From a bacterium (lineage in GTDB: Bacteria > SZUA-182 > DTGQ01), in NCBI GenBank assembly GCA_040752695.1, contig JBFMGO010000103.1:1-21667 (forward strand): a stretch of 21,667 nucleotides of DNA, written 5' to 3'. Shown here piece after piece: positions 1,717-18,312 of the stretch. Both the position numbers and the translations under genes were made by a program. The notes under the pieces were generated by a model that saw only the letters and a list, made by a program, of their open reading frames with translations, searched no databases and was not told where the DNA came from. Each line of letters begins with the position of its first letter. The first letter of the stretch is position 1.

Positions 1717-2928
1717 TCATGCTGCCGCCCTCGATATAGGTATTGCCCTGTACTTTGGATTGGTCAGACCGTTGTACCACTCGTCGATGGTCACACATTT
1801 AATACCGCGGGCTGTAATATAATCGATCAAAGCCCTGAAATCGGCAATGGCCCAGGTATTCGGTCCAGCAACAGCATCGAGGATGTGGCCGTGCAAAAAT
1901 ACGGTGCTTTGGCGACTAATCGCCCGGTCGATCCATGATGATCGTGCTACAGCTAAAGATAAATTACTGTCCAAAGCCTTGCTTTTTAATATCTTGTAGT
2001 TGTCAACAGGTACGGTCTGGAGAAAACTTAAGGTTGACCGTCCCGTATACATGCCGGTAGAATCAAGAGCAGCAAAAACATCATCATTAAAATACCCGCC
2101 AGGATAGGCCAGGTGGTGCGCAGCCCGGGTAAATCCATGATCAATAAGCCACTGGGAACACCGGCTGAGCTCACTTTCAATTTGACTCCGAGTCAAGCCG
2201 GTCAGATAATCTGGAGACCCTGGATGAGTATACGAATGATTGGCAAGAGCCCATCCCGCATCATACATTTCCTCCAATTGGGCTAAAGTGCAGTACCCTG
2301 CCGTACCAATTAAAGTAGGAACAACGTATATGGTGCCTCGCACCCCCCTTGGATGCATGTAAGCATATCCTTCAGTGTAGGCTGATTCGCAGGCGTCATC
2401 AAAGGCGATAACACAGCGGGGAATTCCCTCGACTGAACTATAAATAGAGTCCCAAGAAGCAACTGCTATTTCACTAACTATTGGATTGACCTGAATCTGA
2501 ATAGCAGATATACTTCCCCAGTCGGCCGCTCCGGTAACAGCCCAATCGAGCCGATTGAGAATCATATGATTCCAGCCATTTCGAAAATCTACTCCTGACC
2601 AGGCATACCGATAGTATGCGGTAGCGACGGTCGTAAATAAAACAATCACGATTGTATTTACCTTTGTTGTATCCTCGACATAAATCCAAAAATGCAGATT
2701 TTTGGCACCATCCATTATATCTTCAGCAGCCCCCAGCGTTCGCCTGGCTGTTACACCGGACCCGGATGCACTTGTCAATTTCACTGACTGAGATCCAGTA
2801 TGATACTGCGACGTGTTGGCTGCTACTGTGCCGTTTTCTCCTTGCTTAACCCAATCTCCCAGGATTTCAAAATCCTGCCAAAGGGTTAAAGATTTCACAT
2901 AATCTTGCGGAAGTGCTAATCTTGGCAT
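1717..2928 (-). CDS. polysaccharide deacetylase family (CE4/NodB-like) protein with a beta-rich N-terminal domain
   Basis: CE4 motifs IAFDDA, LANHSYTHP, HLAYPGG and VFLHGH. No signal peptide seen. Confidence 0.85.
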   Translation of the reverse strand: MPRLALPQDYVKSLTLWQDFEILGDWVKQGENGTVAANTSQYHTGSQSVKLTSASGSGVTARRTLGAAEDIMDGAKNLHFWIYVEDTTKVNTIVIVLFTTVATAYYRYAWSGVDFRNGWNHMILNRLDWAVTGAADWGSISAIQIQVNPIVSEIAVASWDSIYSSVEGIPRCVIAFDDACESAYTEGYAYMHPRGVRGTIYVVPTLIGTAGYCTLAQLEEMYDAGWALANHSYTHPGSPDYLTGLTRSQIESELSRCSQWLIDHGFTRAAHHLAYPGGYFNDDVFAALDSTGMYTGRSTLSFLQTVPVDNYKILKSKALDSNLSLAVARSSWIDRAISRQSTVFLHGHILDAVAGPNTWAIADFRALIDYITARGIKCVTIDEWYNGLTNPKYRAIPISRAAA

Positions 2929-2940
2929 ACTTCTAGCCTC

Positions 2941-3759
2941 CTATGCTGGGCTGAATACAATTCTGGCTATGCTATTGGGGTTAAATCCAGTCTCAACGCT
3001 AGCAAAATTTTGCGTGGTACGCTCAATGTTAGAATAAACAAGGCAACCCTCAGTTGCAGATGGAGAGATAATCTGTCTAACAGTAACATTATCGATTTCG
3101 ATATAATCGGAGACGCTCGAATTAGATGGATGACGTAAATAAAACCCTGTCCCTGTTGCAGTTCTAAATAAAAATCCTGTACTTATAGCATCTCCTGTAT
3201 TTAAAGGTATATCTGGTCCTTGGGTTCCAAGCCGAATAGCTAAGGATTTATTACTGCGATATGAAAACGAATATTTATATAATTTATCAGATGTAAGAGG
3301 GTAAATAACAAGTCCTACAATACCTGTACCTATGCTGTATTCTGCCCGTTGTGCATTACCTGAGAATCCATTCCCCGTAACAATGATGCAAGTCGCCACG
3401 GACGAAAATTTATTCCAACCATCAGCCAGGCCGTCAATGTTTGTATCAGGCCAATCTACCCCGTCGGCTGCCAACTCTGCACTTATGCTTTCTCCGCTAC
3501 TACACCCTGGGTACCCGGTAGCGATTTTGCCTGCGGAATCGTATACTGTCACCGTACCACCCAGATAATCACCAACATTCTGCCCTGGCGTATAAATCAG
3601 AGCACCTCCGTTGATAGTGGCCACGTGAATTGTCCCGGTGATTTCCATCTCTTCGAACCCAGACGCAAATGACGGAAATTCCAACCCAAACCCGGGATTG
3701 AGTGGAGACCGAAAAGCAGGAGCGCTGCCAAATCCAGGGGCGCTGCCCAAAATAGGCAT
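2941..3759 (-). CDS. hypothetical beta-rich protein, possibly carbohydrate-binding or virion-associated
   Basis: 272-aa G/S/T-rich ORF with GGAGG upstream. The YIEIDNVTVRQI segment resembles CBM-like sandwich ends. Tightly spaced with its neighbours. Confidence 0.6.
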   Translation of the reverse strand: MPILGSAPGFGSAPAFRSPLNPGFGLEFPSFASGFEEMEITGTIHVATINGGALIYTPGQNVGDYLGGTVTVYDSAGKIATGYPGCSSGESISAELAADGVDWPDTNIDGLADGWNKFSSVATCIIVTGNGFSGNAQRAEYSIGTGIVGLVIYPLTSDKLYKYSFSYRSNKSLAIRLGTQGPDIPLNTGDAISTGFLFRTATGTGFYLRHPSNSSVSDYIEIDNVTVRQIISPSATEGCLVYSNIERTTQNFASVETGFNPNSIARIVFSPA

Positions 3760-3771
3760 GATCCTATCCTC

Positions 3772-4266
3772 CTATACGTTCATGGGCGTGGCCGTGCAGG
3801 TCAGCGTGCCATCGGTAGTACGAGTAGCCCGAATCTTTATGTAATTGGGTATGCCGCGAACTAAAAATGTGTAATTCCCGTCGGCATCCAGGGTCGGAGT
3901 CTGCATTATCTCCCATGTTCCGGCCTGCAACTCATAGCAATTGCCAAATGCCCCGCCAGATATCGCACACCCTAAAATTTCGACCAACCAATTACCAGAG
4001 GAGATAGCAGACACTGCACACTCGATCGAAACGGCATTAAATCCCCGGCAGTCGATCTCTGCGCTGGTGGCCGTAGCGGTAATAGCGTTGTGGGCAATCA
4101 CTACCTCGCCTTTGGATTGTCTGGCTACATCTACGCTGTCCCCCAGTTCGGCTGACAGTAACGTAACCAAATTGCACGGTTGGGGGTTACTGTCTGATAT
4201 CTCGTCATCCCCTATTTTGGGGAGGACGGCTAAAGGCAGTTTATTCTGAGTACTCGTACTCATCAC
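3772..4266 (-). CDS. hypothetical protein
   Basis: 164-aa ORF with AAGGAGG upstream. Its start overlaps the stop of the upstream HTH gene. Confidence 0.7.
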   Translation of the reverse strand: MMSTSTQNKLPLAVLPKIGDDEISDSNPQPCNLVTLLSAELGDSVDVARQSKGEVVIAHNAITATATSAEIDCRGFNAVSIECAVSAISSGNWLVEILGCAISGGAFGNCYELQAGTWEIMQTPTLDADGNYTFLVRGIPNYIKIRATRTTDGTLTCTATPMNV

Positions 4267-4490
4267 TCATGTTCCTCCTTGTCTTCACCATCATTTGAAC
4301 TATGACATGGGTTCTTCACCATGTCTTGATCGATAATGATTCTGTTCTCGATTTCACTTCGCGGTATCCGCAGAGTCTGCGAGATCTTCAAAACCCTGAT
4401 CCTGCCCTCTCGTTTCCACCGATAGATTGTCCGGCAAGAGACTTTCAGCAGATCGGCAGCCTCCTGCATGGTCAAAAGTTTTTCACCCAT
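4263..4490 (-). CDS. excisionase-family (HTH_17/MerR-like) DNA-binding protein
   Basis: LLTMQEAADLLKVSCRTIYRWKREGRI...LRIP. Confidence 0.85.
   Translation of the reverse strand: MGEKLLTMQEAADLLKVSCRTIYRWKREGRIRVLKISQTLRIPRSEIENRIIIDQDMVKNPCHSSNDGEDKEEHE
4297..4328 (-). repeat. 32-bp dispersed in-frame repeat, copy 1 of 7
   Basis: + strand GAACTATGACATGGGTTCTTCACCATGTCTTG; encodes QDMVKNPCHSS. Confidence 0.95.
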
Positions 4491-5508
4491 CTCTTCCCCT
4501 TAGCGAATGCCCCGTCACCTGCCAGGCTGTACACATTTCATAGAGCCGGTCAACGGTATCGCGGCTGATCGTGGATCTGAGTTCCTCCACTGATTTCGAT
4601 GTTGTATATAACGTGGCCAATTCATGGTTGTATCGGTAATTGATAATGCCATAGAGTTCCTCGCTGGCCCAGGGGGAGAGCTTGCGCTGTCCGACCTCGT
4701 CCAGTCCGAGTACCTCGATCTCTTTGGTTTCCTCGATCAACCTGCTGTACTCCGGAGTTCCATCGTCTCCGAAATTGCTTTTCAACCTGGTATAGAACTC
4801 CGGCAGGTTGATAAACAGGCATTTATGATTGGAGCGCATGAGCTCCAGCAATACTGCGCACATGTAGTAAGTTTTACCGGTACCGATACTGCCCATGAAC
4901 CCGATACCTGTTTTACCCGCAGTCTCACGATTTTTACCCGCAGTCTCACGATTGGCTTGTTTCATCTGCCAGCGGGGCTCCCGTCTGTCCAGATATTCCT
5001 GACAAATTGGAATGAACTGATTCTCGTACGGAGACCGTCCCGTGGGCTGGAGCGTGGCTGACCAGTATCGTGGAGGGATCTGTGCCTGTTTGATCCGTCT
5101 GGTCCAGATTTCCTGTTCATGCTGCTCTCTATTATGCGATTCTATACATCCGCATGGGTATAACTTGACCGTCAGACTGGCCCTGATCAGAATCTCCTTG
5201 AAGTGAGAATCTTTGATCGCTGCCCAATCGACACTCGGATTGCGAGGCAAGGCCCCGCAATAGGGGCAGGGCATATCAGCACCTGCTGCCAGCGTGGCTC
5301 CCGTCTCCAATATCAGGGGAGATCTGGGGTCTGGCAATTGTTCTCTGCCAGCGTGGCTCCCGTCGTCATTTGAACTATGACATGGGTTCTTTCCCCTGTT
5401 TTGCTCAAAATACCCGCCTGATGTTTGGCCCTGCTGTCGTCCTGTCAGATTGGTTCTGCTTTTCTTTTTCGCTGCCATTTTCCACCCTGCCAGCGTGGCT
5501 CCTGCCAC
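4483..5508 (-). CDS. DnaC/IstB-like ATP-binding protein (start uncertain)
   Basis: CPYC...CGC, IPPRY, Walker A GSIGTGKT, Walker B LGLDEVG, IINYRYN, DRLYEM, GHSLR. Confidence 0.85.
   Translation of the reverse strand: MAGATLAGWKMAAKKKSRTNLTGRQQGQTSGGYFEQNRGKNPCHSSNDDGSHAGREQLPDPRSPLILETGATLAAGADMPCPYCGALPRNPSVDWAAIKDSHFKEILIRASLTVKLYPCGCIESHNREQHEQEIWTRRIKQAQIPPRYWSATLQPTGRSPYENQFIPICQEYLDRREPRWQMKQANRETAGKNRETAGKTGIGFMGSIGTGKTYYMCAVLLELMRSNHKCLFINLPEFYTRLKSNFGDDGTPEYSRLIEETKEIEVLGLDEVGQRKLSPWASEELYGIINYRYNHELATLYTTSKSVEELRSTISRDTVDRLYEMCTAWQVTGHSLRGRDG
4911..4952. repeat. 21-bp in-frame tandem duplication
   Basis: TTTTACCCGCAGTCTCACGAT x2, encoding NRETAGK x2. Confidence 0.9.
5372..5403 (-). 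repeat. 32-bp dispersed repeat, copy 2
   Basis: GAACTATGACATGGGTTCTTTCCCCTGTTTTG; QNRGKNPCHSS; lies just past the gemA stop. Confidence 0.95.
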
Positions 5509-6145
5509 AGAGGCTCTCCGTGTCTGCCGGTGCAGGCTCTACGGTTCCCGCTGCTGACAGCGGGGCTCCCGCCATTGCCAGCGTGGCCCCATACGTGACT
5601 TCCTGCCGTGCCTGTTTATCACGCTCATGGATCAGAGCGTTTTTCAACCCCTCGATGGCGGATGACGCTGCCGTTTTCGTTAAAAATCTAAAGTCTTCCG
5701 CCTTGAAATATTTCTTCAGGTAATGCCGCAAACCAAAATCCACGGTTTTGCGGTCGTCTGCCGACAGAGGACCATCATCATGCAATTGGCCCTTGAGCTG
5801 AAGATATTGCACGAACTGCAATTCGATATAGCGCAACTGAGCAGGAGTGGCCATACCTGCACGGCCCGCCAGTTCGTCATATTTCTTTCTGGCAGCAGTG
5901 CCGGGCTTTTTCCTCATTTCGAACCCATAAGCTTTGAGGTGACTGAGCATTGCGTTAAACTTATCGCGCGGCATATCGGCAGCCGACGATACTCCTGCAA
6001 CGTTCTTCAGCATATCGCGGTAGATGTCGTCGTCGAGTCTGAGCTCGTTTTTGGCTACGTGCAAGAGAGCTATCTGCGCTTTACTGATAAAGGTTTTGTC
6101 TTCTTTTTTATTTGCCCTGGCGGGACGGTTGGTTCTTTTTTTCAT
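5405..6145 (-). CDS. gemA: GemA/DUF1018 family Mu-like phage regulatory protein
   Basis: QIALLHVAKNELRLDDDIYRDML...GVSSAAD, ATPAQLRYIE, ASSAIEGLK; position next to gam. Confidence 0.8.
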   Translation of the reverse strand: MKKRTNRPARANKKEDKTFISKAQIALLHVAKNELRLDDDIYRDMLKNVAGVSSAADMPRDKFNAMLSHLKAYGFEMRKKPGTAARKKYDELAGRAGMATPAQLRYIELQFVQYLQLKGQLHDDGPLSADDRKTVDFGLRHYLKKYFKAEDFRFLTKTAASSAIEGLKNALIHERDKQARQEVTYGATLAMAGAPLSAAGTVEPAPADTESLCGRSHAGRVENGSEKEKQNQSDRTTAGPNIRRVF

Positions 6146-6211
6146 TTTTTTTATTCCATGTGAAGCAGCGGCAGCCGGTCAGACTGCCGCCTCGATACAC
6201 TATATTCTTGA

Positions 6212-6799
6212 TTATACATCCTTGATCTGAAACTCTTTGGTTTCATAAAAGGGGATGTCCTTGATTTCCTTCTTGGCATTTACCTGATTAAGGCGTTCTA
6301 CAGGCCATGATTTCATAGCCTCTTTATTCAGCTTTTCCTCAATCTTGATTGCCAGCCTGAATTCAGGGTTATCCTTCGCGAAACCTTTGATTAATTCCAG
6401 CGTGTCCTTTTTGGTTTTTACTTTTGTTGACTGCCGGAATCCTATGGTGCCGAAGTTTAACTCGCGGCTTTTGCTTTCAGAGAAGAGAGCATCTTTATTC
6501 TCCTCGATGAAGAGGGTCAAGGCGTCCTCCAGATTCTTGATGTCAAGATGAATCGGCCTGGCCTGGGCCACCTTGTCAGCGGTTATCTTATCGATCTCCT
6601 TCTCGGCCTGGGCCTCGATCTCCTGGATCTGCCGCATCCGGTCGGCCAGTACCCGGAGGACGCTGTCAACCGATTCCAGTGAATTGATCAGCATACTCCC
6701 CTCGTTCCATGCCATGCGAACCGGTGTCAGCTCCGCCAGTTGGACGGGTGCCTCAGTGCTTCCTGATATAACTACCGGTGATTTTGCTTCCTGGCTCAT
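6212..6799 (-). CDS. gam: host-nuclease inhibitor Gam (Mu Gam-like)
   Basis: Coiled coil followed by SKSRELNFGTIGFRQSTKV and EEKLNKEAM; Mu early-operon context. Confidence 0.9.
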   Translation of the reverse strand: MSQEAKSPVVISGSTEAPVQLAELTPVRMAWNEGSMLINSLESVDSVLRVLADRMRQIQEIEAQAEKEIDKITADKVAQARPIHLDIKNLEDALTLFIEENKDALFSESKSRELNFGTIGFRQSTKVKTKKDTLELIKGFAKDNPEFRLAIKIEEKLNKEAMKSWPVERLNQVNAKKEIKDIPFYETKEFQIKDV

Positions 6800-7860
6800 T
6801 CTTTATTATCCTCCTGTCCTTCGTTTTCCTGTGCCTCATCAGTGCTGTTATCTTCAGCGAAAACAGCCGATAAATCCACAAGCTCTCTTGCCTGAGCCAT
6901 CTTGAGGTAGTATAATTTCATAGCGATCCTGATAGCATCAAGTTCCAGATAGGTCTCCTGCAGGTGGATGAATTTCGTGTCGGTTCGTATCTTATGGACA
7001 AGGCAGTTGAGATACTGTACTTTGTTGATGAGATCGTCGTAGTAGCCCTCCAGGATGATCCTGGATACCTTTGAACTATGACATGGGTTCTTTACCCTGT
7101 CTTGGTCTTGCTGCTCTGCACGCGCGGCTGATTCCGTGTTTTTCCCCGTGCCAGCGGGGCTCCCGCAGCTCTTTGCCTGCTCTTCGCTCTCTTTACATGG
7201 AGGAGTGGCAGGCTCAGGTGCAGATTGAGGCTGGAGTGGCGATGTTTCTGCTGCCAGTGGGGCTACCGTCTGGACAGCGTTGGCATCGCCACTTCCGGCA
7301 CTCATGTCGGCACTTTCAGTTGCCAGTGATATTCCCGTCGATTTATCTACAACATAAGGGTCACGGTAAAGAGGATCTGGTTTTTCTGCGCCGCTAACCA
7401 ACGCATATACGACACCTTTCCAACTGGTACTGCTGGCACTATGCCGACCGGAAACAACCTTTTTCAATAATAAATAGCGCAGGAACTTACGCGCATAGGT
7501 ATAGCTGACCCCGCATACCTGGACCAGATCCGAAATAGTGAATTCCCCTTGCTGAGATAGAACCCTGACCCCATGCCACATTTTTTCAGCCGGCGGCTGC
7601 GACCTCTTTTTAATGCCGACGGGAGCCCCGCTGGCAGTTGTATTGACCTGGTCCTGTGCCTGGTCAGGCTGGTTCTGTGCCTGTGCCAGAGGGATGCTCT
7701 CAGCTTCCTCCTCTTGTGCCATATTCTCCTGGTTGTCTGATACTGGTGCCACAGTGGCTCTCTGGCACTCGGTGTCGTCACTTGAACTATGACATGGGTT
7801 CTTTCCCCTGTCTTGGACAACATCATTACCCGTTTTAACCGATCTGAGGTTTCTCCTCAT
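6796..7860 (-). CDS. Mu-like early protein with a probable winged-helix core and low-complexity expansions
   Basis: KMWHGVRVL...FTISDLVQVCGVSYTYARKFLRYL; directly downstream of the MuB-like gene; GGGAGG RBS. Confidence 0.65.
   Translation of the reverse strand: MRRNLRSVKTGNDVVQDRGKNPCHSSSDDTECQRATVAPVSDNQENMAQEEEAESIPLAQAQNQPDQAQDQVNTTASGAPVGIKKRSQPPAEKMWHGVRVLSQQGEFTISDLVQVCGVSYTYARKFLRYLLLKKVVSGRHSASSTSWKGVVYALVSGAEKPDPLYRDPYVVDKSTGISLATESADMSAGSGDANAVQTVAPLAAETSPLQPQSAPEPATPPCKESEEQAKSCGSPAGTGKNTESAARAEQQDQDRVKNPCHSSKVSRIILEGYYDDLINKVQYLNCLVHKIRTDTKFIHLQETYLELDAIRIAMKLYYLKMAQARELVDLSAVFAEDNSTDEAQENEGQEDNKE
7073..7104 (-). repeat. 32-bp dispersed repeat, copy 3
   Basis: GAACTATGACATGGGTTCTTTACCCTGTCTTG; QDRVKNPCHSS. 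Confidence 0.95.
7784..7815 (-). repeat. 32-bp dispersed repeat, copy 4
   Basis: GAACTATGACATGGGTTCTTTCCCCTGTCTTG; QDRGKNPCHSS. Confidence 0.95.
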
Positions 7861-7877
7861 GTTTATCCTCCCTAAAA

Positions 7878-7905
7878 TGTCATTCCCCGCGGAAGCGGGA
7901 ATCCA
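7878..7905. repeat. intergenic REP-like palindrome (GTCATTCCC...GGGAATCCA type)
   Basis: TGTCATTCCCCGCGGAAGCGGGAATCCA is an inverted near-copy of 1071-1097. Confidence 0.8.
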
Positions 7906-7913
7906 CTTTTTCC

Positions 7914-8624
7914 TTATGCTGCTTTGCGTTTCAGTACTGCTTTGGTAGTCATCTCAATCATCTTCCCGGAAATATTAGCAGTGCTGTTAGCCCTGGCCAT
8001 TCTCTCCAGGTGAGAAAGTGCCACGATCGTATCCCTGAAATTGCCCATGGTAGCTGCAAACAATTGCTCGGCTGCCCTATCATCTATGGTAAGACTGCAC
8101 AATTCCTGCCCCAGGATGATGATTTCATTGGCCTTCAGAGGCTGGTAAACTACCTGCTGACTGACCCGGCTCCAGAACTGATGATGCCTCATCAGCTTAA
8201 GCTGAATCTCGTCCATGCCTACCAGCACGACGGGAATATTGGTTTCGTCATGCAGATCCCGGAGCGTGTCCAGCAATTTTCGGTCCCTGACCAGATAGTC
8301 GGCTTCGTCGATAATGATGGTGCATTTAACCTGCTGAATAGCGTTCTGCAGATCTGTAAATTTGTCCTTGATTCTGGAAAGACTGAGAATGTTCAGTTCC
8401 TTGTTAATAGCTTCAAGCATCCAGGATGTAGACCAGGTAGCTTTCGCACGCAAATAAATGGCATTAGTCTGGCATACATACCACTGGACGCTCTTGGTTT
8501 TGCCCATGCCTGCCCCGCCATAAATGAGCCCCAGTCCGGGAACTCCCTCATCGCGGTTCACCAGAGCAGTCAGCGCCTCCTGAAGCCTGCGCACATTCTC
8601 AGTCTGTACAAACTTTGGTTTCAT
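7914..8624 (-). CDS. MuB-like AAA+ transposition ATPase
   Basis: Walker A GGAGMGKT, Walker B IIIDEAD, LRDLHDE, VVLVGM. Confidence 0.9.
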   Translation of the reverse strand: MKPKFVQTENVRRLQEALTALVNRDEGVPGLGLIYGGAGMGKTKSVQWYVCQTNAIYLRAKATWSTSWMLEAINKELNILSLSRIKDKFTDLQNAIQQVKCTIIIDEADYLVRDRKLLDTLRDLHDETNIPVVLVGMDEIQLKLMRHHQFWSRVSQQVVYQPLKANEIIILGQELCSLTIDDRAAEQLFAATMGNFRDTIVALSHLERMARANSTANISGKMIEMTTKAVLKRKAA

Positions 8625-9048
8625 CCGTCACCTCTGATTTTTTCGTCTTTATCAGCCTGATATCCTGGTTGTTTTCGATCAAGTGCTTTTTGAGCTCCTT
8701 GAACGAGGTCCAAAACGAGCTGTATCCAATGAATTTTTTATCAGGATCTGGCAAATGTTCTTCAGCCCATTTTTTACCGTATTTTTTTGCAGCCGTCCTT
8801 AAAGCTGACCGTATCTTCGGGCTATACACGAACTCTACACATTTGCGGCAAAAGCGCCTGCGCTCTTCACAATCATTTAAAATCCAACTGCCATTGAACC
8901 AGCCACCGACAGCGAATGTTATTTCATTACAGGATTCATTCACCTGCACCAAGACGAGTGTCAATTCATAGCCGTCACAAAGCAGATCCACCTGGCGGTT
9001 TATCCGCTTCAACCTTTTCTCGACATACTCCCAATCCTGCTTAGTCAT
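8599..9048 (-). CDS. Mu-like phage hypothetical protein
   Basis: 149-aa ORF overlapping both neighbours. The LLCDGYELTL...FWTSFKELKKHL pattern is recalled from transposable phages. Confidence 0.7.
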   Translation of the reverse strand: MTKQDWEYVEKRLKRINRQVDLLCDGYELTLVLVQVNESCNEITFAVGGWFNGSWILNDCEERRRFCRKCVEFVYSPKIRSALRTAAKKYGKKWAEEHLPDPDKKFIGYSSFWTSFKELKKHLIENNQDIRLIKTKKSEVTDETKVCTD

Positions 9049-9250
9049 GGCTCAATAGCTCATCTCCCTTTTGTTTACTTGCCATAATGGCTCCCTGCTG
9101 ACAGTTTTCTAACTCCGTCTGCACTCTTTCCAGTTTCGTCCGCACTTTTTCCAATTCCCGCTGGTCCTTAAGATTCCAATGAATTTCCCACCCTGCAAGG
9201 AACATGGAAAAAATAACCGCTACCACGATAGGGGCGCATCTCAGTTTCAT
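9041..9250 (-). CDS. small membrane-anchored coiled-coil protein
   Basis: Start ATG 9250 after AGGAGGTGA. Hydrophobic PIVVAVIFSMFLAGW followed by a coiled coil. Confidence 0.65.
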   Translation of the reverse strand: MKLRCAPIVVAVIFSMFLAGWEIHWNLKDQRELEKVRTKLERVQTELENCQQGAIMASKQKGDELLSHD

Positions 9251-9284
9251 TTCTATCACCTCCTTTATTTTGCATTTAACTACA

Positions 9285-9842
9285 TTATTTTGCATTTAAC
9301 TCCCTAAAACGTCTCACCCAGCGATAAACCGAAGCCGGGGGGGCTTGAACTTGCTGAACAATTTTTGATGTTTTGGTTCCGGCCAGAAACAATTCATATG
9401 CTTGCTTGAATTGCTCCAGGTTATTGCCATGAGCAGCCTGCTGTATTATGGTTACACTGCGGTTCCATTTGTAATAAGGCATGCCATTTTCACCGAAAAC
9501 AAGCTCTTTTGCCTGTTGGTTTGCCTGTTGGTTTGCCTGCTCTTTTGCCTGTTGGTTCGAGTTTGAGTCTGTGTTTGAACTTGAGTTTGGTTCCTGATTA
9601 TCATTTTTGGGGTAAATACCGGCCTTTTCGAGAATGCCGGCTATATAGGCTGCAGGATCGTTGGTTTTCTGTGCCAGCTCCACCCAGAGCTTTATCTGCT
9701 GCGTGTACCTGGGAAGCTGCTGTGGTTTACCGCCGATACTGGCGTCAGCATCTCCCCAGAGGGGGAGCTGTACTACTTTCGAACTATGACATGGGTTCTT
9801 CACCAGGTCTTGTTTATCTTTTGTGCTTTTTTCAGTGTTCAT
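9285..9842 (-). CDS. protein with a C-terminal helix-turn-helix
   Basis: AYELFLAGTKTSKIVQQVQAPPASVYRWVRRF; internal QQAN/QQAK repeats. Confidence 0.7.
   Translation of the reverse strand: MNTEKSTKDKQDLVKNPCHSSKVVQLPLWGDADASIGGKPQQLPRYTQQIKLWVELAQKTNDPAAYIAGILEKAGIYPKNDNQEPNSSSNTDSNSNQQAKEQANQQANQQAKELVFGENGMPYYKWNRSVTIIQQAAHGNNLEQFKQAYELFLAGTKTSKIVQQVQAPPASVYRWVRRFRELNAK
9781..9812 (-). repeat. 32-bp dispersed repeat, copy 5
   Basis: GAACTATGACATGGGTTCTTCACCAGGTCTTG; QDLVKNPCHSS. Confidence 0.95.
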
Positions 9843-9854
9843 GATCGGTTCCCT

Positions 9855-12716
9855 TTATTTCCCAGCGGCCGCTTTTTTTCTTTCATACATTCTGGCCAGA
9901 GAATCGTAGTAGTCCTTGCTGAGCCGGTAGAGATCCGTCTGCTCGTATTCAGACATGATAGCCCTGTCCTCGTCCGTGACCAATGCTTGACACCCCTCCA
10001 GAATGCGCTCATAACACCATTCATAACGCTCTCTGGACGTTCCGAAATAATCAGGTCTCCTGGATGAAGCGGCCCCGTTCACCTGGCCCTGGCCCTGGCT
10101 CTGGCCATGGTCCTGCCCCTGGCCCTGGTTGCTGGTGGCTACGCCATCGGTGCCTATAGCCTCTACGGCATCGATGATGCCCTTATAGCGGTCGAGCTCT
10201 ATCGTTTCGCTCTCCTGGCCGCGGGGCTGAACCGGCTTTTTCTGTCCGGCCTGCTTCAACCGCTCCTGCATCCGCCAGTCTTTGTCCTTCCCGTAGTCAT
10301 AGCCGTGGGCTTTGGCCAGGTCAGTGTTGACAGCAGCCTGAGCGGCTATCATCTGCTCGATGTGCCTGGTCTGGCGATGCTGGGCCTTTTTGATTTCGGC
10401 AGGAGTCATTCCGGCAGCGGCCGGATCGTTGGCTATACAGATAAACCGTGCCTCTGTTTTCCTGGCTATAGCGTGGATCTGCTCCGGCTGCCCTTCGGCG
10501 TTTTTAACAGAATCAGGTCCGGGGCTGTTCTTTGGCTCGAAAATGTAGATTTTAGAGGCATCCTGCAGGTCGATTCTGATTTCGAGCTTCTGACCCTCGT
10601 AATTTACCAGCTCAGGAGCGTAATAAAAGCAGTTGTTATACCGGATCGTCATCTTCCTGACCGTCGCAGGTTTGCAGGGCATGAGCAGCAGGTCGAGCTG
10701 GCGTTCGTCTATCCGTTTGGCTACCCATCCCGGCATGTAGAATACTTCACGCGGCCGCATTTTATTCAGCTCTGAGTGCGGGCTCTCCTCGTAGACATTC
10801 GTAATGTAATTGTCGATGAGCACCTGCAATTCTTCCGCTGTGTACTTCTCGATAATGACAGATGGCCGGTTGGCTACGCTGTTACCCGTATAGCCGGAAA
10901 TCTCGGCAAACAAGCCCCTGGTCAGGGTGCCGAAAAACCTCTCGACATGCGGCTTTCTCTCCGGCGCGTACTTTGGCAGCCTGGGCGCGGTTATCTCCAA
11001 TTCGTCGAGAATCTGATTGACCAGCGCAGATTGATAGTCGAGCCCGTTATCACGCAGCATCTCCTGCGGAATCCCCCAGGTCAGGAACCCGGCCCGCAAC
11101 GTCTGCGCAATGCCCCAGCCGCTGCTCTCTGGAAAAAGCCGCACAATGGCGCGACGAGAGCGAATATCGACCAGGCCGATGAGCTTCATGCGCTGACCGC
11201 CCTTGCAGATCACGTCCGCAGGAGAGGAATCGATCTCCCACCGCTCGTTCGGCCAGCAGATCCCTGCGGATGCATTTCCAATAGCCAGTTGATGCTGGCC
11301 TTTCCATTTGGAGCGGCCTTTCGAATGGCTGAGAATGTAATCGAGCGCACTCCTGTGCTTAACCTTGATCTGCTTCACGAAGCGGTATATCGTTGGATAC
11401 GATGGCAATTCACCGTCCGTGAAATAATCAGGTAGACTCTCCGGCCTCTGGAGCTGTAAGTAATGATAAATGGCCGTGGTACTCCGGAGCGGATTCTCGA
11501 AAAGCATGGCCGCTATTTCCCGTTGAGCCTGCTCCGTCAAAATCGGCTTGCGGCCCGGAACCTGCGGAACATACTGCACGGGTGGCCGGGAGGAACCCTG
11601 CCTTGCACCTGCCTGAGTGGCTCCTGCCTGTTGGATTCCTGTGCCAGCGGGACTCCCGGCTTGCCCGGACCCTGCTTGCCTGGACCCTGCCTGCCTGGCT
11701 CTCTGCATCTGCTGTGCCCTGGTTACTCCCGGAGATGCATTCCCGGCGCTTCCGATAATCCCGGAGTTTTCAGTATTTCCGGCACTCCTGGAGCTTCCGA
11801 AACTCTCTCTCTTGCAAAGTACTCCGGGCAGGAGGCCATCGACACCGGCGTCCCTATAGGCATTACGCCAGCGGTAGTAGGTGCCCAGAGACACCGTGCC
11901 TACGATTTCGAGGGTCTCCCGCCTGACCCAGAGGGGAGGTCGATCCTCCGGGCTTTCGGAGTTTGATCGATGAGCTCTGAAGGAAGGAAGGAGTGCATCG
12001 CCACCGTTACCATTACCATTATAATTTTTACTATTATTGCCACCCTCAAACCTGAAGAGTGATCCATCATTGAAGGCGGCTAAAAACTGCTTTATTAAAT
12101 CAACCTTTGAACTATGACATGGGTGCTTTACCCTGTCTTGGTTTATATTGGAATCAGCAGCAGCAGCTAACCGGCTCTCAATCATCCGGTCGATTGCTAC
12201 GATCACAGCCTCACGCTCACGCGCAATGCGCCAGGCTGCCTGGCTTCTGTCCTGCACTGAAGCTGAATCCGTAACGCGCTGCGAACTGGTCCCTGGATTG
12301 CCCAGGGCGATGATTTTTTGATTATTCGAACTATGACATGGGTTCTTTACCCTGTCTTGATTGGACACCCGCGTGGAGAGGTCAAATTTGACATGGTGTT
12401 TCTGATCGAGATCGATGACACTATTGGACACTTTTCCGTTAGGTGTGCTATTGGATGTTATATTGGATGTGCTCTTGGGTGTGCTATTAGACATATGACC
12501 GGTGACAGCCGATATCGCCAGATACCTGGCCAACAGGTCGGGGTGGCTGCCCAGATTGAACTGCAATATCTGGCCGCCGCACCCCTTACCCCGCCCGTCA
12601 ATCTTGCGGTACGGCAAGGTTGATTTAGCCCAGGTTAAGAAACTACCCCCTCTATGAGACCTATCAACCAACCCTGCTAATTGCTTTCCTGTCACCCATT
12701 GATCCATGATGCACAC
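9855..12716 (-). CDS. MuA-like DDE transposase (953 aa)
   Basis: Catalytic triad contexts WEIDSSPAD, LRDNGLDY and KPHVERFFGTL. HTH segments SLGTYYRW and PSYPTIYRF. The C-terminal region resembles the Mu transposase C domain. Confidence 0.92.
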   Translation of the reverse strand: MCIMDQWVTGKQLAGLVDRSHRGGSFLTWAKSTLPYRKIDGRGKGCGGQILQFNLGSHPDLLARYLAISAVTGHMSNSTPKSTSNITSNSTPNGKVSNSVIDLDQKHHVKFDLSTRVSNQDRVKNPCHSSNNQKIIALGNPGTSSQRVTDSASVQDRSQAAWRIAREREAVIVAIDRMIESRLAAAADSNINQDRVKHPCHSSKVDLIKQFLAAFNDGSLFRFEGGNNSKNYNGNGNGGDALLPSFRAHRSNSESPEDRPPLWVRRETLEIVGTVSLGTYYRWRNAYRDAGVDGLLPGVLCKRESFGSSRSAGNTENSGIIGSAGNASPGVTRAQQMQRARQAGSRQAGSGQAGSPAGTGIQQAGATQAGARQGSSRPPVQYVPQVPGRKPILTEQAQREIAAMLFENPLRSTTAIYHYLQLQRPESLPDYFTDGELPSYPTIYRFVKQIKVKHRSALDYILSHSKGRSKWKGQHQLAIGNASAGICWPNERWEIDSSPADVICKGGQRMKLIGLVDIRSRRAIVRLFPESSGWGIAQTLRAGFLTWGIPQEMLRDNGLDYQSALVNQILDELEITAPRLPKYAPERKPHVERFFGTLTRGLFAEISGYTGNSVANRPSVIIEKYTAEELQVLIDNYITNVYEESPHSELNKMRPREVFYMPGWVAKRIDERQLDLLLMPCKPATVRKMTIRYNNCFYYAPELVNYEGQKLEIRIDLQDASKIYIFEPKNSPGPDSVKNAEGQPEQIHAIARKTEARFICIANDPAAAGMTPAEIKKAQHRQTRHIEQMIAAQAAVNTDLAKAHGYDYGKDKDWRMQERLKQAGQKKPVQPRGQESETIELDRYKGIIDAVEAIGTDGVATSNQGQGQDHGQSQGQGQVNGAASSRRPDYFGTSRERYEWCYERILEGCQALVTDEDRAIMSEYEQTDLYRLSKDYYDSLARMYERKKAAAGK
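12109..12140 (-). repeat. 32-bp dispersed repeat, copy 6
   Basis: GAACTATGACATGGGTGCTTTACCCTGTCTTG; QDRVKHPCHSS. Confidence 0.95.
12328..12359 (-). repeat. 32-bp dispersed repeat, copy 7
   Basis: GAACTATGACATGGGTTCTTTACCCTGTCTTG; QDRVKNPCHSS. Confidence 0.95.
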
Positions 12717-12749: not shown

Positions 12750-13118
12750 TTACAGCGATTCCAGTGATAGGTCTTCTTTGGCCTGCCTGATTGTCTGCAT
12801 TTTCTTCTGCAATGCTCGCTCTTCAGATACCAACCGGCTATTCAATTCCAGAATTGCCGATTTAATTGAGGGCAAAAACATGTTAATCAACTGTTGATCC
12901 TTGGAAAACTCGATCAGTTCAGGCAGCAAGGCAGCAGGAAAAGGAAGCTTGCCTTCAGCAAAATCATAAAGAGCTCGGATCGAATAATCGACTCCCTTTT
13001 GATGCAAAAAATCTTGAAAAGCCCGGATAGACAGGTCATGCTCCCTGTTTTTCCCCTTCTCAAAGACAAAAATGCGATACAAATGATCGCTGGCGAACTC
13101 TTTGTTCTTATTTTTCAT
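12750..13118 (-). CDS. putative phage regulatory protein (HTH-like plus coiled coil)
   Basis: Part of ORF 12750..13262. The likely start is ATG 13118 after GGAGAG. The SIRALYDFAEG segment is HTH-like. Confidence 0.55.
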   Translation of the reverse strand: MKNKNKEFASDHLYRIFVFEKGKNREHDLSIRAFQDFLHQKGVDYSIRALYDFAEGKLPFPAALLPELIEFSKDQQLINMFLPSIKSAILELNSRLVSEERALQKKMQTIRQAKEDLSLESL

Positions 13119-13296
13119 GTCTCTCCAATCTCCGTTTCTATCACCAAACCTATCCATAAACCCTTCCCTACACATGCAATATGGTCCCTCACACATTTGC
13201 ACTCCCCTTTCTCTCGTCTGGAGGTTCGATTGATTTGAGATAAAATCATAAGTATGATACATTGATAATAGTGATGGTACTGACGAGGATTAAAAA

Positions 13297-13494
13297 TCAC
13301 TTTTCCTCTTCAGGCCAAAGTTCATTCATTGGAATATTTAAATATTTTGCTATTTTTTCTTTGGTCGGGGCTTGCCTTCTGAGCCTGTTTATCGCCTGAG
13401 AGATGGCTGAAGGGTGTACTCCAATCGATTCAGCCAATTCGTCTTGACGAATTCCCCGCTTTAAAAGCAAAATTTTGATTTCTACGGATGTCAT
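13297..13494 (-). CDS. Ner/Cro-like HTH regulator
   Basis: EIKILLLKRGIRQDELAESIGVHPSAISQAI...KIAKYLNIPMNELWP. Confidence 0.85.
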   Translation of the reverse strand: MTSVEIKILLLKRGIRQDELAESIGVHPSAISQAINRLRRQAPTKEKIAKYLNIPMNELWPEEEK

Positions 13495-13566
13495 GGCACT
13501 CTTTTTATGGTTTAAAAGATAACGGTTGTTTTTAATCCCAAAAAGTCATAAAGGAGTAATAAATCT

Positions 13567-13752
13567 ATGGATAAAAAAGAACTTATTCTTACCACAGCTA
13601 AAGACCTTTTAATTGCGGCTTTTAACAACAAAGACATATGGCGTAATATCAGTCTAAATACCAAAACAGGAACAGATCAAATTAATAACCTTGGAGATTT
13701 ATTAGCTACTATGGCAACTAAAGTAAAATCAGTGTACGACAACATTGACTAA
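13567..13752 (+). CDS. small hypothetical protein (61 aa)
   Basis: AAGGAG at 13551-13556; open frame in AT-rich DNA. Confidence 0.6.
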   Translation: MDKKELILTTAKDLLIAAFNNKDIWRNISLNTKTGTDQINNLGDLLATMATKVKSVYDNID

Positions 13753-13922
13753 ATTCGCTCAATATCCACTTTGACATGACAACCTATTAGTATGATCTTT
13801 AATGCTGTTTCCATTATGTCAATAAATTGTAAGATATCTTGTTCGCTATAGTATTTTTTTGCAACTTCAACTATTTCAGCTATGGCTTTTTCTCTATCTA
13901 TAGTCTTTTCCTCTTGAGCCAT
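13749..13922 (-). CDS. small hypothetical protein (57 aa, not in the ORF track)
   Basis: AGGAGGTGA RBS at 13937-13929. Translation MAQEEKTIDREKAIAEIVEVAKKYYSEQDILQFIDIMETALKIILIGCHVKVDIERI. Confidence 0.65.
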   Translation of the reverse strand: MAQEEKTIDREKAIAEIVEVAKKYYSEQDILQFIDIMETALKIILIGCHVKVDIERI

Positions 13923-14047
13923 TGAATATCACCTCCTATCTTTTTTAAATTAGAGCGAGCATTAACCAACAATCAGCCGATATAGTAAATGGAGAAATAT
14001 AACCGCAGAAAAACTTTCAATTTATGCTTACTCTATTTTTTAATGTC

Positions 14048-14069
14048 ATTGATAATATCAATTATCAAT
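14048..14069. promoter_or_regulatory. palindromic operator candidate
   Basis: ATTGATAAT-ATCA-ATTATCAAT, a perfect 9-4-9 IR just downstream of the early promoter. Confidence 0.55.
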
Positions 14070-14075
14070 ACTAAC

Positions 14076-14104
14076 AGTATAATTAAATGAATAATTAATG
14101 TCAA
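14076..14104 (-). promoter_or_regulatory. early (Pe-like) sigma70 promoter
   Basis: TTGACA (14104-14099), 17 bp, TATACT (14081-14076). Confidence 0.75.
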
Positions 14105-14120
14105 GAAAAACGTTAAATAA

Positions 14121-14555
14121 ATGATTAACAAACTAGGTGAACGACTAAAAAAAATAAGATCTGAACGAAAAACCTCACAACGAGAATTTGCCAAAAAATT
14201 AGGGATAAGTTATGTTACATTATGTAATTATGAAACAGAAAAAAGAGAACTTCCTCTTTCTATATTCCATGATATTATTCAAATGTTTAACATATCACCA
14301 CAATGGCTTTTAACAGGTGAGGGCAACATGCTCCAGGAAGGAGCAAAAAAACAGACCAGTCCATTTCCTATTGAAGATTTACCCAAGGAACAAATCAAGC
14401 AATGGCTAGATGATTTTTGGATTCACGCCAGTCCAGATGAACGAACCTGGATAAGAATTGAAATGAAAAAAAAATTCCCCGAGTTTGCGGAATGGTTAAA
14501 AAAAATCGGGGAAGATGGGACAGAGAACGAGCGTTGCGTGGAGAAATTAGCCTAA
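14121..14555 (+). CDS. XRE/CI-like prophage repressor
   Basis: LGERLKKIRSERKTSQREFAKKLGISYVTLCNYETEKRE...ISPQWLLTGEG; divergent from the early operon; no S24 peptidase domain. Confidence 0.9.
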   Translation: MINKLGERLKKIRSERKTSQREFAKKLGISYVTLCNYETEKRELPLSIFHDIIQMFNISPQWLLTGEGNMLQEGAKKQTSPFPIEDLPKEQIKQWLDDFWIHASPDERTWIRIEMKKKFPEFAEWLKKIGEDGTENERCVEKLA

Positions 14556-14764
14556 TGATTAAAAAATTAGAAATAAACAGCAATACTTTATATTAAAATA
14601 CCTATCTAATTTCTAAACTTTTAAAATTTACAAAAAATTCAACCTCTAAAACCTTCCTGTAACTATTTACTACTATTCCACACATTTTCTACACATATAA
14701 TATCTATCTCTTAAACTGTTATATTCTATATAACAGCGTTATATTATTTTTACTACCTATCCAT

Positions 14765-15184
14765 TTTAAAGTGCTCCCACATCAGTCAAAGTGCGCCTAA
14801 CAATTTAAAGTGCGCCCAAACTTTTTCTATTAAATATCAAACAATTAACACAGGAGCACTTTAAATTAGGTGAGAAAAATTCAAATTTATCAACTCTTAA
14901 ACATTTCAAGCGGTTAACCGAGATACACTTTAAATTCTGCCAAGATCCTCTTTAGGTGAGAAAAAATAAGCCAGTTTTGTCAATTCTCTTTAATCTCATT
15001 CACTTAACCAGACTCCGTAACAGGGTCACAGCGGTTAAAATTTCTATTCTCACCTATAGTTTCGCTTGTCGTATCAACTAGTTAACCAAAAATTTATCAA
15101 AATACAGACTCGAAATTCCAAAGGAAAATTACGCCAAATTCCTATCAAATCAATCAATTCCACTTATCAGTTCTCTCTCTTATA
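14765..15184. promoter_or_regulatory. element end region with candidate transposase-binding repeats
   Basis: AAAGTGCKCCYA at 14768, 14788 and 14807. Inverted CACTTTAAA at 14857 and 14926. TTAGGTGAGAAAAA at 14866 and 14952, inverted at 15047-15056. Confidence 0.65.
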
Positions 15185-15198
15185 GTGTATCTGGTATT

Positions 15199-18100: not shown

Positions 18101-18312
18101 TTAGCCTGGCTGATGTATTAACCCTCCTCAAGGGGCGCAACTACAACTGTACCCTTGAAGAGGTTAAGCAAGCCCTGACTATCCTGGAACTGGCCTTTAT
18201 TCTCAAACAGGAAAATAATGCCTATACCTATCAGGTACCAATATTTCAGAATCTGCTCAGGGCAAGCGGACCAGAACACCTTCTGGCCTCTGAACTGGAA
18301 AGTGGGTATTAA
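15199..18312 (+). CDS. WD40-repeat / TM / P-loop ATPase (STAND-like) protein, apparently 5'-truncated
   Basis: About 3 WD40 repeats (GH..PVNSVAFSP.GKTLAS.S.D.TVRLWD) and a TM helix LFLYAIFTVLMLITLAGIYYF. ATPase motifs SPYQ...FFGR, GARQIGKT and LLDEVD. The ORF begins mid-repeat with no RBS. Confidence 0.8.
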   Translation: MINDRTIRLWDIDSGRQVKVLEGHSGPVNSVAFSPGGKTLAFTSLDNTVRLWDIDSGRQVKVFKGYSYLFASVVFSPGGNTLASASWDSTTHLWNVASGRQVKVLEGHSDPVNSVAFSPDGKTLASASWDGTVRLWDMQNLALIRTMLGGQKGNWISCDSDGKCIRHDDGTLLIQIDENDANNGNDNNGTIIPVLPQVKRLPSQLEIIDFPQKLISGDGTVVKFSIKIKNTGQNRAYWLNIIHDITRDRKNQNPLIFHPPSSIMKIEPEEVIELPCGISSLSEYANPQGKEAILRLTITSVYGAAHALEIPVQTLTPALSLVQAKLQQGDNTQSLLVSLKNIGGQSLKKTLFTATISELKAPLDTVEKLELPSGQMVNLSFALPKGTRLNKKATLSLFASKVDHPVHEWVFINRPIAWPTPPLFLYAIFTVLMLITLAGIYYFRLYHHPLVVRLSSQPATLMNIAFDQLSDTRKLLRRTGRLKAVLSANSIQVNTLEKAIAFFSSITPDEKCSYLAARLSAQYSPEPNGYPKPNGHPEPNGHPEPNGHPAPNGHPKPNDHPELIGHPKPNGRLPLFSLRMGEDFILNMEKCFALFPPEDMDAQELISRLRPIGTIREHISLVICLTPDQQRELRKIPHDSGLILVVPDSNELTRLLLSPQPLIDFAQLMSSQVSIIRISPYQTAGGLSKESKFFGRTRLLAHIMNRELTNYFLIGARQIGKTSLLKAIERRYQEHPQVECHYLPLTETCSIEERLLSALKLKNMDPSGVFAYLREESPQGKVRLFLLDEVDPFIKREAGCGYPTLQHFRSLSEQGCCHFILAGFWCLCRSITLDYHSPIKNFGESLSIGALEYEACEALAVKPMAAMNIRYESTELLERIINLTGQRANLIAFICSEILQSPSMDMKSRVIKSDDVQYALASYNFRKALAGWEYFFSGGNENAPLYDRRADHLNRLIVYATIGMEKPFSLADVLTLLKGRNYNCTLEEVKQALTILELAFILKQENNAYTYQVPIFQNLLRASGPEHLLASELESGY
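16771..16914 (+). repeat. 8 x 18-bp coding tandem repeat (PEPNGH-like)
   Basis: PEPNGY PKPNGH PEPNGH PEPNGH PAPNGH PKPNDH PELIGH PKPNGR. Confidence 0.9.

Follow-up and report, generated by a model that had tools for sequence, protein, structure and literature searches.

We report a hairpin repeat of about 33 nucleotides (nt) that recurs within the genes of a Mu-like transposable prophage. It was noticed in a 21,667-nt stretch of bacterial DNA, called the window throughout (GTDB lineage Bacteria; SZUA-182; DTGQ01), which is the entire contig C103 (JBFMGO010000103.1) of assembly GCA_040752695.1. The repeat is an insertion at the DNA level, it is not a peptide-level feature of the proteins that carry it, and it is not phage-specific. 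We think it rather probable that it is a miniature palindromic element of this genus-level lineage, resembling the repetitive extragenic palindromes (REPs), which has inserted into the prophage and has been filtered by stop codons to one reading frame.

A hairpin repeat inserted into prophage genes

Seven identical, same-strand matches to the 16-mer GAACTATGACATGGGT had been predicted from the letters of the window alone. We recovered all seven on the + strand with no mismatches, where 0.17 would be expected by chance and 0 of 100 shuffles held seven or more. Searching the whole 6.05-Mb, 239-contig assembly with a 35-mer, and tolerating up to eight mismatches, we found ten copies, seven on C103 and three on contig C85, which carries late genes of the same prophage. 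With a profile made from every known copy we obtained the same ten matches (E ≤ 1.6e-7), the next one (E = 0.97) being noise, and neither search found a copy in the assembly outside the prophage. Phage genes in the window lie on the − strand, and all ten copies are on the sense strand, co-oriented with transcription. They are listed below with the + strand start of the 16-mer in brackets.

Copy 1, window 4294..4328, − strand (4297): in frame in the C-terminal tail of a 75-residue HTH_17 protein, ..IIID[QDMVKNPCHSS]NDGEDKEEHE-stop; 28 nt upstream of the start of the next open reading frame (ORF; 3772-4266)
Copy 2, window 5369..5403, − strand (5372): in frame in the N-terminal part of a 341-residue DnaC-like ORF as called, QNRGKNPCHSS; directly 3′ of the GemA stop codon (5405-5407)
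Copy 3, window 7070..7104, − strand (7073): in frame in the variable linker of a 354-residue ORF, just before its conserved C-terminal domain; exactly the consensus
Copy 4, window 7781..7815, − strand (7784): in frame, codons 16-26 of the 354-residue ORF
Copy 5, window 9778..9812, − strand (9781): in frame, codons 11-21 of a 185-residue helix-turn-helix (HTH) protein, MNTEKSTKDK[QDLVKNPCHSS]KVVQLPLW
Copy 6, window 12106..12140, − strand (12109): in frame in the N-terminal linker of a 953-residue MuA-like transposase, ADSNIN[QDRVKHPCHSS]KVDLIKQF
Copy 7, window 12325..12359, − strand (12328): in frame in the N-terminal linker of the MuA-like transposase, STRVSN[QDRVKNPCHSS]NNQKII
Capsid copy, C85: intergenic, past the stop codon of a 133-residue gene and ahead of the ribosome-binding site for capsid, 17 nt upstream of the capsid ATG
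Terminase copy, C85: overlaps the end of a 113-residue ORF (..KTG-stop) in frame 2, the stop codon of this ORF being the element's own TGA; 14 nt before the next ATG, that of a small-terminase-like gene
Portal copy, C85: after portal codon 4, MPDQ[QDRVKNPYQSSI]ERKY; more diverged

Aligned, the window copies share a block of 33-35 nt between unrelated flanks. As had been proposed, all seven stand in the sense frame of the ORFs named for them, where they read Q-D/N-R/M/L-V/G-K-N/H-P-C-H-S-S. Among the ten phage copies, eight occupy this single sense frame, one is intergenic, and one overlaps a stop codon in frame 2.

A sister prophage provides the empty sites. The closest homologue of MuA lies on a 36-kb contig (C9) of a genome of the same genus (G002), and this contig is colinear with C85 and C103, with 65-82% nucleotide identity in aligned blocks; 16-mer and profile searches found no copy of the element in it. 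At the site of copy 6 the two MuA genes differ by exactly 33 nt, or 11 codons, the sister reading ADSDLN/KVQLIKQF. Subtracting 33 nt before the small-terminase-like gene leaves CGC-TGA-AGGA..ATG, which in our reading matches CGG-TGA-AAGG in G002, and at the N-terminus of the portal the difference is exactly 36 nt. The right flanks at the two clean 33-nt sites (AAGG and AAAGG) are already present in G002, and the inserted unit is therefore the 33-nt CAAGAC...GTTCA. For copy 7 no empty site could be defined, as its flanks have diverged too far from those of the sister phage.

Further sites without the block come from other homologues. Paralogues of the 185-residue gene on contigs C120 and C51 share the conserved N-terminus MN.EK...K[IV].QLPLW without it (MSMNHEKKQ/KILQLPLW on C120), which places the start codon of the 185-residue gene upstream of copy 5. 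The 354-residue ORF starts with MRRNLR, kept as MRKTLR in the sister prophage, where the block of copy 4 is missing. Both this start and the C-terminal domain are conserved in G002 and in an Omnitrophota metagenome-assembled genome (MuB 71% identical), while neither copy-bearing stretch is conserved, and the Omnitrophota homologue is without both copies. The homologue alignment suggested in the original prediction thus defines the inserted block (33, 33 and 36 nt), and these clean differences, together with chromosomal copies in a related organism, support the tiny mobile element in coding DNA that it had offered as one of its interpretations.

The related organism was found in a metagenome collection, where an exact 20-nt core of the repeat occurs on nine contigs, or loci, all of one assembly; allowing up to nine mismatches, these loci hold 15 copies. 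They match chromosomal contigs of this genome at 66-85% identity over kilobases and are largely syntenic, and therefore derive from a related species, the congener. Their 54 larger ORFs are ordinary genes (type II and type IV secretion, two-component systems, a ROK kinase, a sulfatase, formate-tetrahydrofolate ligase and ABC binding proteins), and a scan of these 54 returned no phage or transposase families. The copies are mostly intergenic. Two stand in frame in gene termini, one after codon 3 of a gene for a substrate-binding protein (the orthologue in this genome has no copy) and one in the C-terminal tail of a SpoIIE-family gene. By our reading, 11 copies are co-oriented with the containing or adjacent gene, two are opposite and two are unassignable; for 11 of 13 the one-sided p is 0.011, from copies that are not independent. 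Chromosomal copies are more diverse than phage ones, with a distinct subfamily (L017a and L017b, nine mismatches), and occur in both orientations, which suggests an older chromosomal pool of the element. Two chromosomal intergenic regions, L014 compared with C23 and L018b with C158, were too diverged for insertion borders. The genome-wide count that had been proposed as a check therefore has two sides: ten copies here, all in the prophage and none in the rest of the genome, and dispersed copies in the chromosome of the congener instead.

Beyond this lineage, the exact 20-nt core had no match in 185,579 species-representative genomes or in IMG/VR, a 43-nt copy had none among 50,697 phage records, and the 16-mer was present in 0 of the 60 relatives searched. 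In the titles and abstracts returned by literature searches we found no description of such repeats in phage genes.

The predicted hairpin, GACAGGGT/ACCC(A)TGTC, proved to be the minimum-energy fold (−10.1 kcal/mol as RNA). In the unit of about 33 nt, the stem has 8 base pairs and a single bulged A, the loop is of 5 nt, and the tail on the 3′ side, ATAGTTCA, is conserved and left unpaired. Of 192 stem cells in 24 distinct copies, 91.1% are paired, compared with 23-50% when the partner is slid. Compensatory double changes occupy three cells, and 5 of 500 shuffles reached the covariation score, although sequences related by descent can pass this control even when they form no structure. Eleven cells hold G-U pairs, which are valid on the sense strand only; on the other strand each would be a C-A mismatch, and it is therefore the sense strand that folds, as RNA or as single-stranded DNA (ssDNA).

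Changes among the ten phage copies are unevenly placed, with 2 of 160 cells altered at positions 17-32 (the 3′ arm and tail) and 13 of 160 at positions 1-16 (Fisher p = 0.006). For the congener copies this comparison is biased, since the core search retrieved them. Positions 5, 11 and 12 vary and define subfamilies, the same changes appearing in phage and chromosomal copies, and such recurring variants have the look of the subfamilies of a copied element. By our count from the alignment, the five synonymous sites of the 16-mer are unchanged in the nine copies that keep it, while amino-acid replacements do occur in the first five codons (R to M or L, V to G, D to N), and we conclude that constraint acts on the nucleic acid.

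Two promoter candidates within the repeat were rejected. The sense-strand sigma-70 candidate (AAGACA-N17-CATAGT, with TG) scored only 8/12, was absent from the promoter scan and varies in its −35-like part; the antisense one (TTGAAC-N16-TACCCT) does not conserve its −10-like part. The loop U-GAAGA-A of three copies bears a resemblance to BoxB (nut).

Reading frame, orientation and competing explanations

The 33-mer holds stop codons in four of its six frames, two sense (TAA or TGA; TAG) and two antisense. In the alignment of the window copies, TAG closes frame 3 in 7 of 7 and TAA or TGA closes frame 2 in 5 of 7, as the original prediction had noted. A 33-nt unit never shifts the reading frame, and in-gene insertions can therefore survive only in the two stop-free phases, one of which the hairpin repeat occupies. 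A second repeat, CTGCCAGCGGGGCTCCCGTC, serves as a natural control: 20 nt long and, as read from its sequence, stop-free in all six frames, it occupies five of the six, which supports the stop-codon filter.

We propose that copies were inserted into the Mu-like prophage at the DNA level, and that those in genes would have survived only if their phase was free of stops and the protein could accommodate 11 more residues, as at termini and in linkers, so that the in-gene copies all read QDRVKNPCHSS. Copying may proceed through the folded single (sense) strand, recognised by a hairpin-recognising enzyme acting in trans, as for REPs and the ends of IS200/IS605. Uniform orientation would then have three causes together: specificity for one strand, preferred insertion at purine-rich AARG, and a sense peptide that is hydrophilic and better tolerated. 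The lack of an intact enzyme in this genome would have prevented spread beyond the imported prophage. Nearly everywhere in the window, including the host flank, the + strand has a negative GC skew. Leading strands are usually G-rich, and the sense strand would therefore lie on the lagging-strand template.

Several observations weigh against this reading. All eight in-gene copies use the sense open frame and none the antisense one (one-sided p = 0.004), and both non-coding copies are co-oriented too. Left flanks show no conservation; on the right, most copies are followed by AA, and AARG stood at the two clean sites before insertion; AARG is twice as frequent on the sense strand as on the antisense strand (494 vs 243), and the sense peptide is hydrophilic (hydropathy −1.69) compared with the antisense one (+0.43). 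The AARG excess and the hydropathy difference are partial, post hoc explanations of orientation only. Enrichment in the prophage is strong, with ten copies in about 39 kb, none in the other 6 Mb and nine exact-core loci in the metagenome scan, and a passive-target model does not predict it. No mobilising enzyme was found: Y1_Tnp is represented in this genome by one broken fragment with an internal stop, and by none of the 54 ORFs of the nine metagenome loci. In the alignment no GTAG/CGTC tag adjoins the stem on either strand, the 5′ side being CAA and the 3′ tail as given above. Inserts measure both 33 and 36 nt. The target duplication that the original prediction had hoped to define did not emerge, in that no target-site duplication is consistent, with AAT/AAT and AAA/AAA at two copies only. 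Lastly, the strong conservation of the 3′ half could reflect function.

In a separate observation, copy 3 is preceded by a tandem duplicate of its own first 6 nt, CAAGAC/CAAGAC (window 7105-7110 with 7099-7104), and the same kind of six-base duplicate, CAAGGC/CAAGGC, occurs at L017 5983-5994. Each duplicate matches the variant of its own copy, and the pair, at two independent copies, may be a trace of the insertion mechanism.

Orientation, enrichment and the near-invariant 3′ half would all be explained if the hairpin were a strand-specific single-strand signal exploited or propagated by the phage, either an ssDNA hairpin copied in Mu-type replication or an RNA stem-loop recruited at cistron boundaries. 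We entertain this only tentatively. Were such a signal copied during Mu-type replication, the phage would be both its amplifier and its shuttle between sister species.

A related proposal, which we judge unlikely, is that of a functional strand-specific RNA hairpin, carried on long early and late mRNAs of the phage and on host mRNAs of the congener, that would process, stabilise or modulate the translation of its transcript and would have accumulated in the phage at cistron boundaries to tune polycistronic expression. The sense orientation of 10 of 10 copies agrees with it, as do the 11 of 11 G-U cells that pair only in sense RNA or a sense single strand, the strong enrichment in phage and the 11 of 13 co-oriented congener copies (one-sided p = 0.011, copies not independent). 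By our reading a start codon stands no more than about 60 nt from 6 of the 10 copies (capsid, −17; terS-like, −14; the ORF after the 75-residue HTH protein, −28; portal, codon 5; the 185-residue HTH protein, codon 11; the 354-residue ORF, codon 16), a seventh directly follows the GemA stop codon, and REPs are thought to act as RNA elements (PMC3733652). However, the sister prophage has the same gene order and no counterpart at any site, and three copies sit deep in ORFs, far from boundaries (twice in MuA and once midway in the 354-residue ORF). No T-run follows the stem; Rfam gave no family at gathering score over the window and, around one copy at E ≤ 10, a single chance-level match to a long non-coding RNA.

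It is improbable that the prophage is the element's home and vehicle, the repeat being copied in Mu-type replication or recombination, with a phage protein or a template switch at the hairpin, for example, as the means, and the congener copies being phage footprints. Density is far higher in phage, in this genome the element is confined to the prophage, and the prophage also accounts for 12 of the 14 genome hits of the second, phage-restricted repeat family. Against this, the chromosomal copies are more diverse, as would befit an older chromosomal pool, no phage genes lie near the nine chromosomal loci, and the sister phage, with the same replication genes, is without the element.

We give little credence to sites on duplex DNA, like stoperators, bound by a phage protein (c, Ner, or the 75- or 185-residue HTH protein) or a host protein that silences or organises the prophage in an orientation-dependent manner. 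Multiple asymmetric sites oriented with transcription recall the stoperators of Cluster A mycobacteriophages, as described in PMC6550527, and the almost invariant 16-nt core contains GAAC-N10-GTTC, as read from its sequence. Yet no stretch of the c/ner control region (13401-15200) comes closer than 5 mismatches in 16, a level no better than background in the window; the sister prophage has no sites, and the element occurs among ordinary chromosomal genes of another organism. Hairpin covariation and sense-only wobbles also point to a single strand and not to a duplex. The loading site for a phage HTH protein envisaged in the original prediction is thus unsupported, with no copy in the immunity region, no counterpart in the sister phage and copies outside phages.

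Selection of a Cys-His peptide module, QDRVKNPCHSS, at the protein level, or mimicry of a solitary repeat of the CRISPR (clustered regularly interspaced short palindromic repeats) type, is very improbable: the same 11 residues do occur in eight proteins, and the genome does encode Cas1, but two of the ten copies are untranslated or lie in another frame, the first five codons vary in residue while synonymous sites never do, the compared orthologues and a paralogue are without the peptide, no CRISPR array was found in the assembly for comparison, and Rfam gave no CRISPR-DR match. The peptide tag of the original prediction accordingly fails. Homologues carrying the peptide with synonymous divergence, which it had named as evidence against conservation of the DNA or RNA, were not seen: the orthologues have no peptide, and the core synonymous sites are unchanged in nine copies. 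Of its interpretations, then, the mobile element has gained, and the element-specific functions, peptide tag and protein-loading site alike, have been weakened.

The REP-like insertion that we favour would be a natural example of very small selfish repeats entering working genes, with no frame shift, a stop filter and empty sites. It also carries a warning for annotators, namely that a conserved 11-residue motif across unrelated phage proteins can be a DNA-level artefact. Being restricted to the prophage here and chromosomal in a sister species, the element marks phage traffic between species and may lead to the enzyme that moves such repeats. Its unexplained orientation and enrichment leave room for a real strand-specific function.

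The host prophage and its other repeats

By Pfam and PHROGs, the phage genes of the window form the early region of a Mu-like transposable prophage, encoded on the − strand: Ner-like, MuA-like, the 185-residue HTH protein, MuB-like, the 354-residue ORF, Gam, GemA, DnaC-like and HTH_17. C85 carries the late genes (portal, terminase, protease and capsid). Laid on the sister prophage, C85 and C103 are colinear, and the two ends of the joined element both abut WD40-repeat sequence; because of this arrangement we read the two contigs as one prophage of roughly 39 kb. Contig-end overlaps of 127 nt link C103 to C183 and C183 to C158, with some ambiguity, as the end of C183 overlaps C112 equally. C158 is this genome's version of a chromosomal locus also found in the congener, and the prophage therefore probably sits in this genome.

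WD40-repeat coding sequence occurs on both host flanks (window 15199-18312; C85 1404-2242; about 80% identical), and the transposable phage appears to have inserted into, or beside, a WD40-repeat gene. Six tandem 18-nt units encoding PNGHPE-type repeats (window 16752-16913) lie inside the 1037-residue WD40 protein. At the other end of the window, a perfect 56-nt direct repeat (236-291 and 1090-1145, 854 nt apart) flanks a truncated Bro-N/Ant-like ORF. Sequence at the end of C85 matches the Ant-like region (292-824) at 87% identity, and this similarity probably caused the assembly break there. Between the Ant-like gene and the early genes (1717-4266) are ORFs of 164, 272 and 403 residues. In the 403-residue ORF there is a polysaccharide deacetylase domain, together with a weak match to a tail protein. 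The sister prophage has homologues of the 164- and 403-residue ORFs in the equivalent place, with another copy on C60 (61-65% amino-acid identity).

The called DnaC-like ORF and the end of GemA share about 100-200 nt in each of the two prophages (window 5405-5508; L025 9329-9537), which leaves the true start of the DnaC-like gene uncertain. Contigs C120 and C51 carry further remnants of Mu-like early regions, including the 185-residue HTH paralogues at 52-53% identity; the C120 remnant additionally has DnaC-like, Gam and MuB-like genes and a 149-residue ORF. Neither remnant holds a copy of the hairpin repeat. No MuB relatives were confirmed among viral contigs.

Other small repeats accompany the hairpin element, at the following places.

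Second repeat, CTGCCAGCGGGGCTCCCGTC: window 4966-4985, 5286-5305, 5345-5364, 5487-5506, 5554-5573, 7148-7167, 7251-7270 and 11641-11660, and three on C85
Second repeat, inverted copy: window 7618-7637
Host-wide family of about 70 nt, with arms such as CCCGCGGAAGCGGGAATCCA: window 7886-7905 and 1071-1090; L014 about 5826-5964; C85 24858-25030
Arrays of the sister prophage: L025 (G002:C9) 8891-8925, 9455-9485, 11962-11978, 13101-13130 and 14023-14053; 10127-10197 and 12851-13039

The 14 genome hits of the second repeat were counted at up to three mismatches. Within ORFs it encodes, for example, TGATLAA, DGSHAGR, REPRWQ and ASGAPV, and neither the sister prophage nor the other loci examined contained it. 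The 70-nt family spans dozens of contigs of this genome, occurs in the congener, and is also in the prophage, with one copy between MuB and the 354-residue ORF. The sister prophage has repeats of its own, (CTGACCA)n heptamer arrays and (CGCAGAGA)n octamer hairpins. The heptamers occur in both orientations and are read as SGQWSVVSG or TDHWPLTT in MuA, GemA and the DnaC-like protein. Octamer arrays stand at two of the same boundaries as the hairpin element, before terS and before portal, and heptamer arrays are in linkers of some of the same proteins (the C-terminal linker of MuA, the C-terminal tail of GemA and the N-terminus of the DnaC-like protein). Since different, lineage-specific repeats use the same spots, we read these as places where such phages tolerate extra DNA.

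Comparison with known systems

REPs (PMC3733652, PMC8266576) offer the closest set of likenesses: a palindrome of 20-40 nt, a conserved tag left unpaired at one end, G-T pairing within the stem, mostly intergenic positions, as in the congener, occasional location in an ORF or supply of a stop codon, and lineage-specific families. Intragenic REPs and G-T pairing in REP stems have both been described (PMC3733652). The element differs in that its tag, ATAGTTCA, is on the 3′ side and is not GTAG/CGTC, its copy number is very low, it is confined to the prophage in this genome, and 8 of its 10 copies there are in genes. Moreover, no REP-associated tyrosine transposase (RAYT) was found, the Y1_Tnp fragment being broken and the 54 metagenome-locus ORFs having none. 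In view of its tag and its copy number, and since no RAYT was found in this genome or in the metagenome loci, we call it REP-like and not a REP.

The subterminal hairpins of IS200/IS605, which Y1 (HUH) transposases recognise in single-stranded form (PMC5027513), share an imperfect hairpin, an extrahelical base and adjacent conserved single-stranded bases; they are strand-specific, as the sense-only wobble pairs suggest for the element, and the known bias of these insertion sequences towards the lagging-strand template (PMC5027513) would fit the uniform orientation seen here. The resemblance is architectural only: the element has no insertion-sequence body, no intact Y1 transposase was found in this genome and no fixed tetranucleotide target was seen, and the AA/AARG right flank is suggestive at most of a fixed target.

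Stoperators (PMC6550527) are likewise many short, asymmetric sites spread across a temperate phage and nearly all oriented with transcription. They are 13 bp long and have a motif in common with the operator of the early promoter; the phage repressor binds them, and a cognate set has been identified in each related genome (PMC6550527). Unlike them, the element has no operator copy and none in the sister phage, and it has copies outside phages.

Miniature inverted-repeat transposable elements differ in design. Here the inverted repeat is internal, a tail of 8-10 nt is present on one side only, and target-site duplication is not consistent. The small dispersed repeats (SDRs) of cyanobacteria, reportedly described by Elhai et al. 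in 2008, are said to be tens of nucleotides long and apparently mobile, with no known enzyme; their lineage and sequence are different.

Rickettsia palindromic elements (RPEs), for which in-frame copies have been described (PMC10969869), come closest in their in-frame habit and resemble the element as palindromic selfish DNA lying in frame in unrelated genes, with a conserved peptide at tolerated positions. RPEs measure about 150 bp, compared with 33 nt here. They occupy the chromosomal genes of an obligate intracellular bacterium, whereas the element described here occupies the genes of a prophage.

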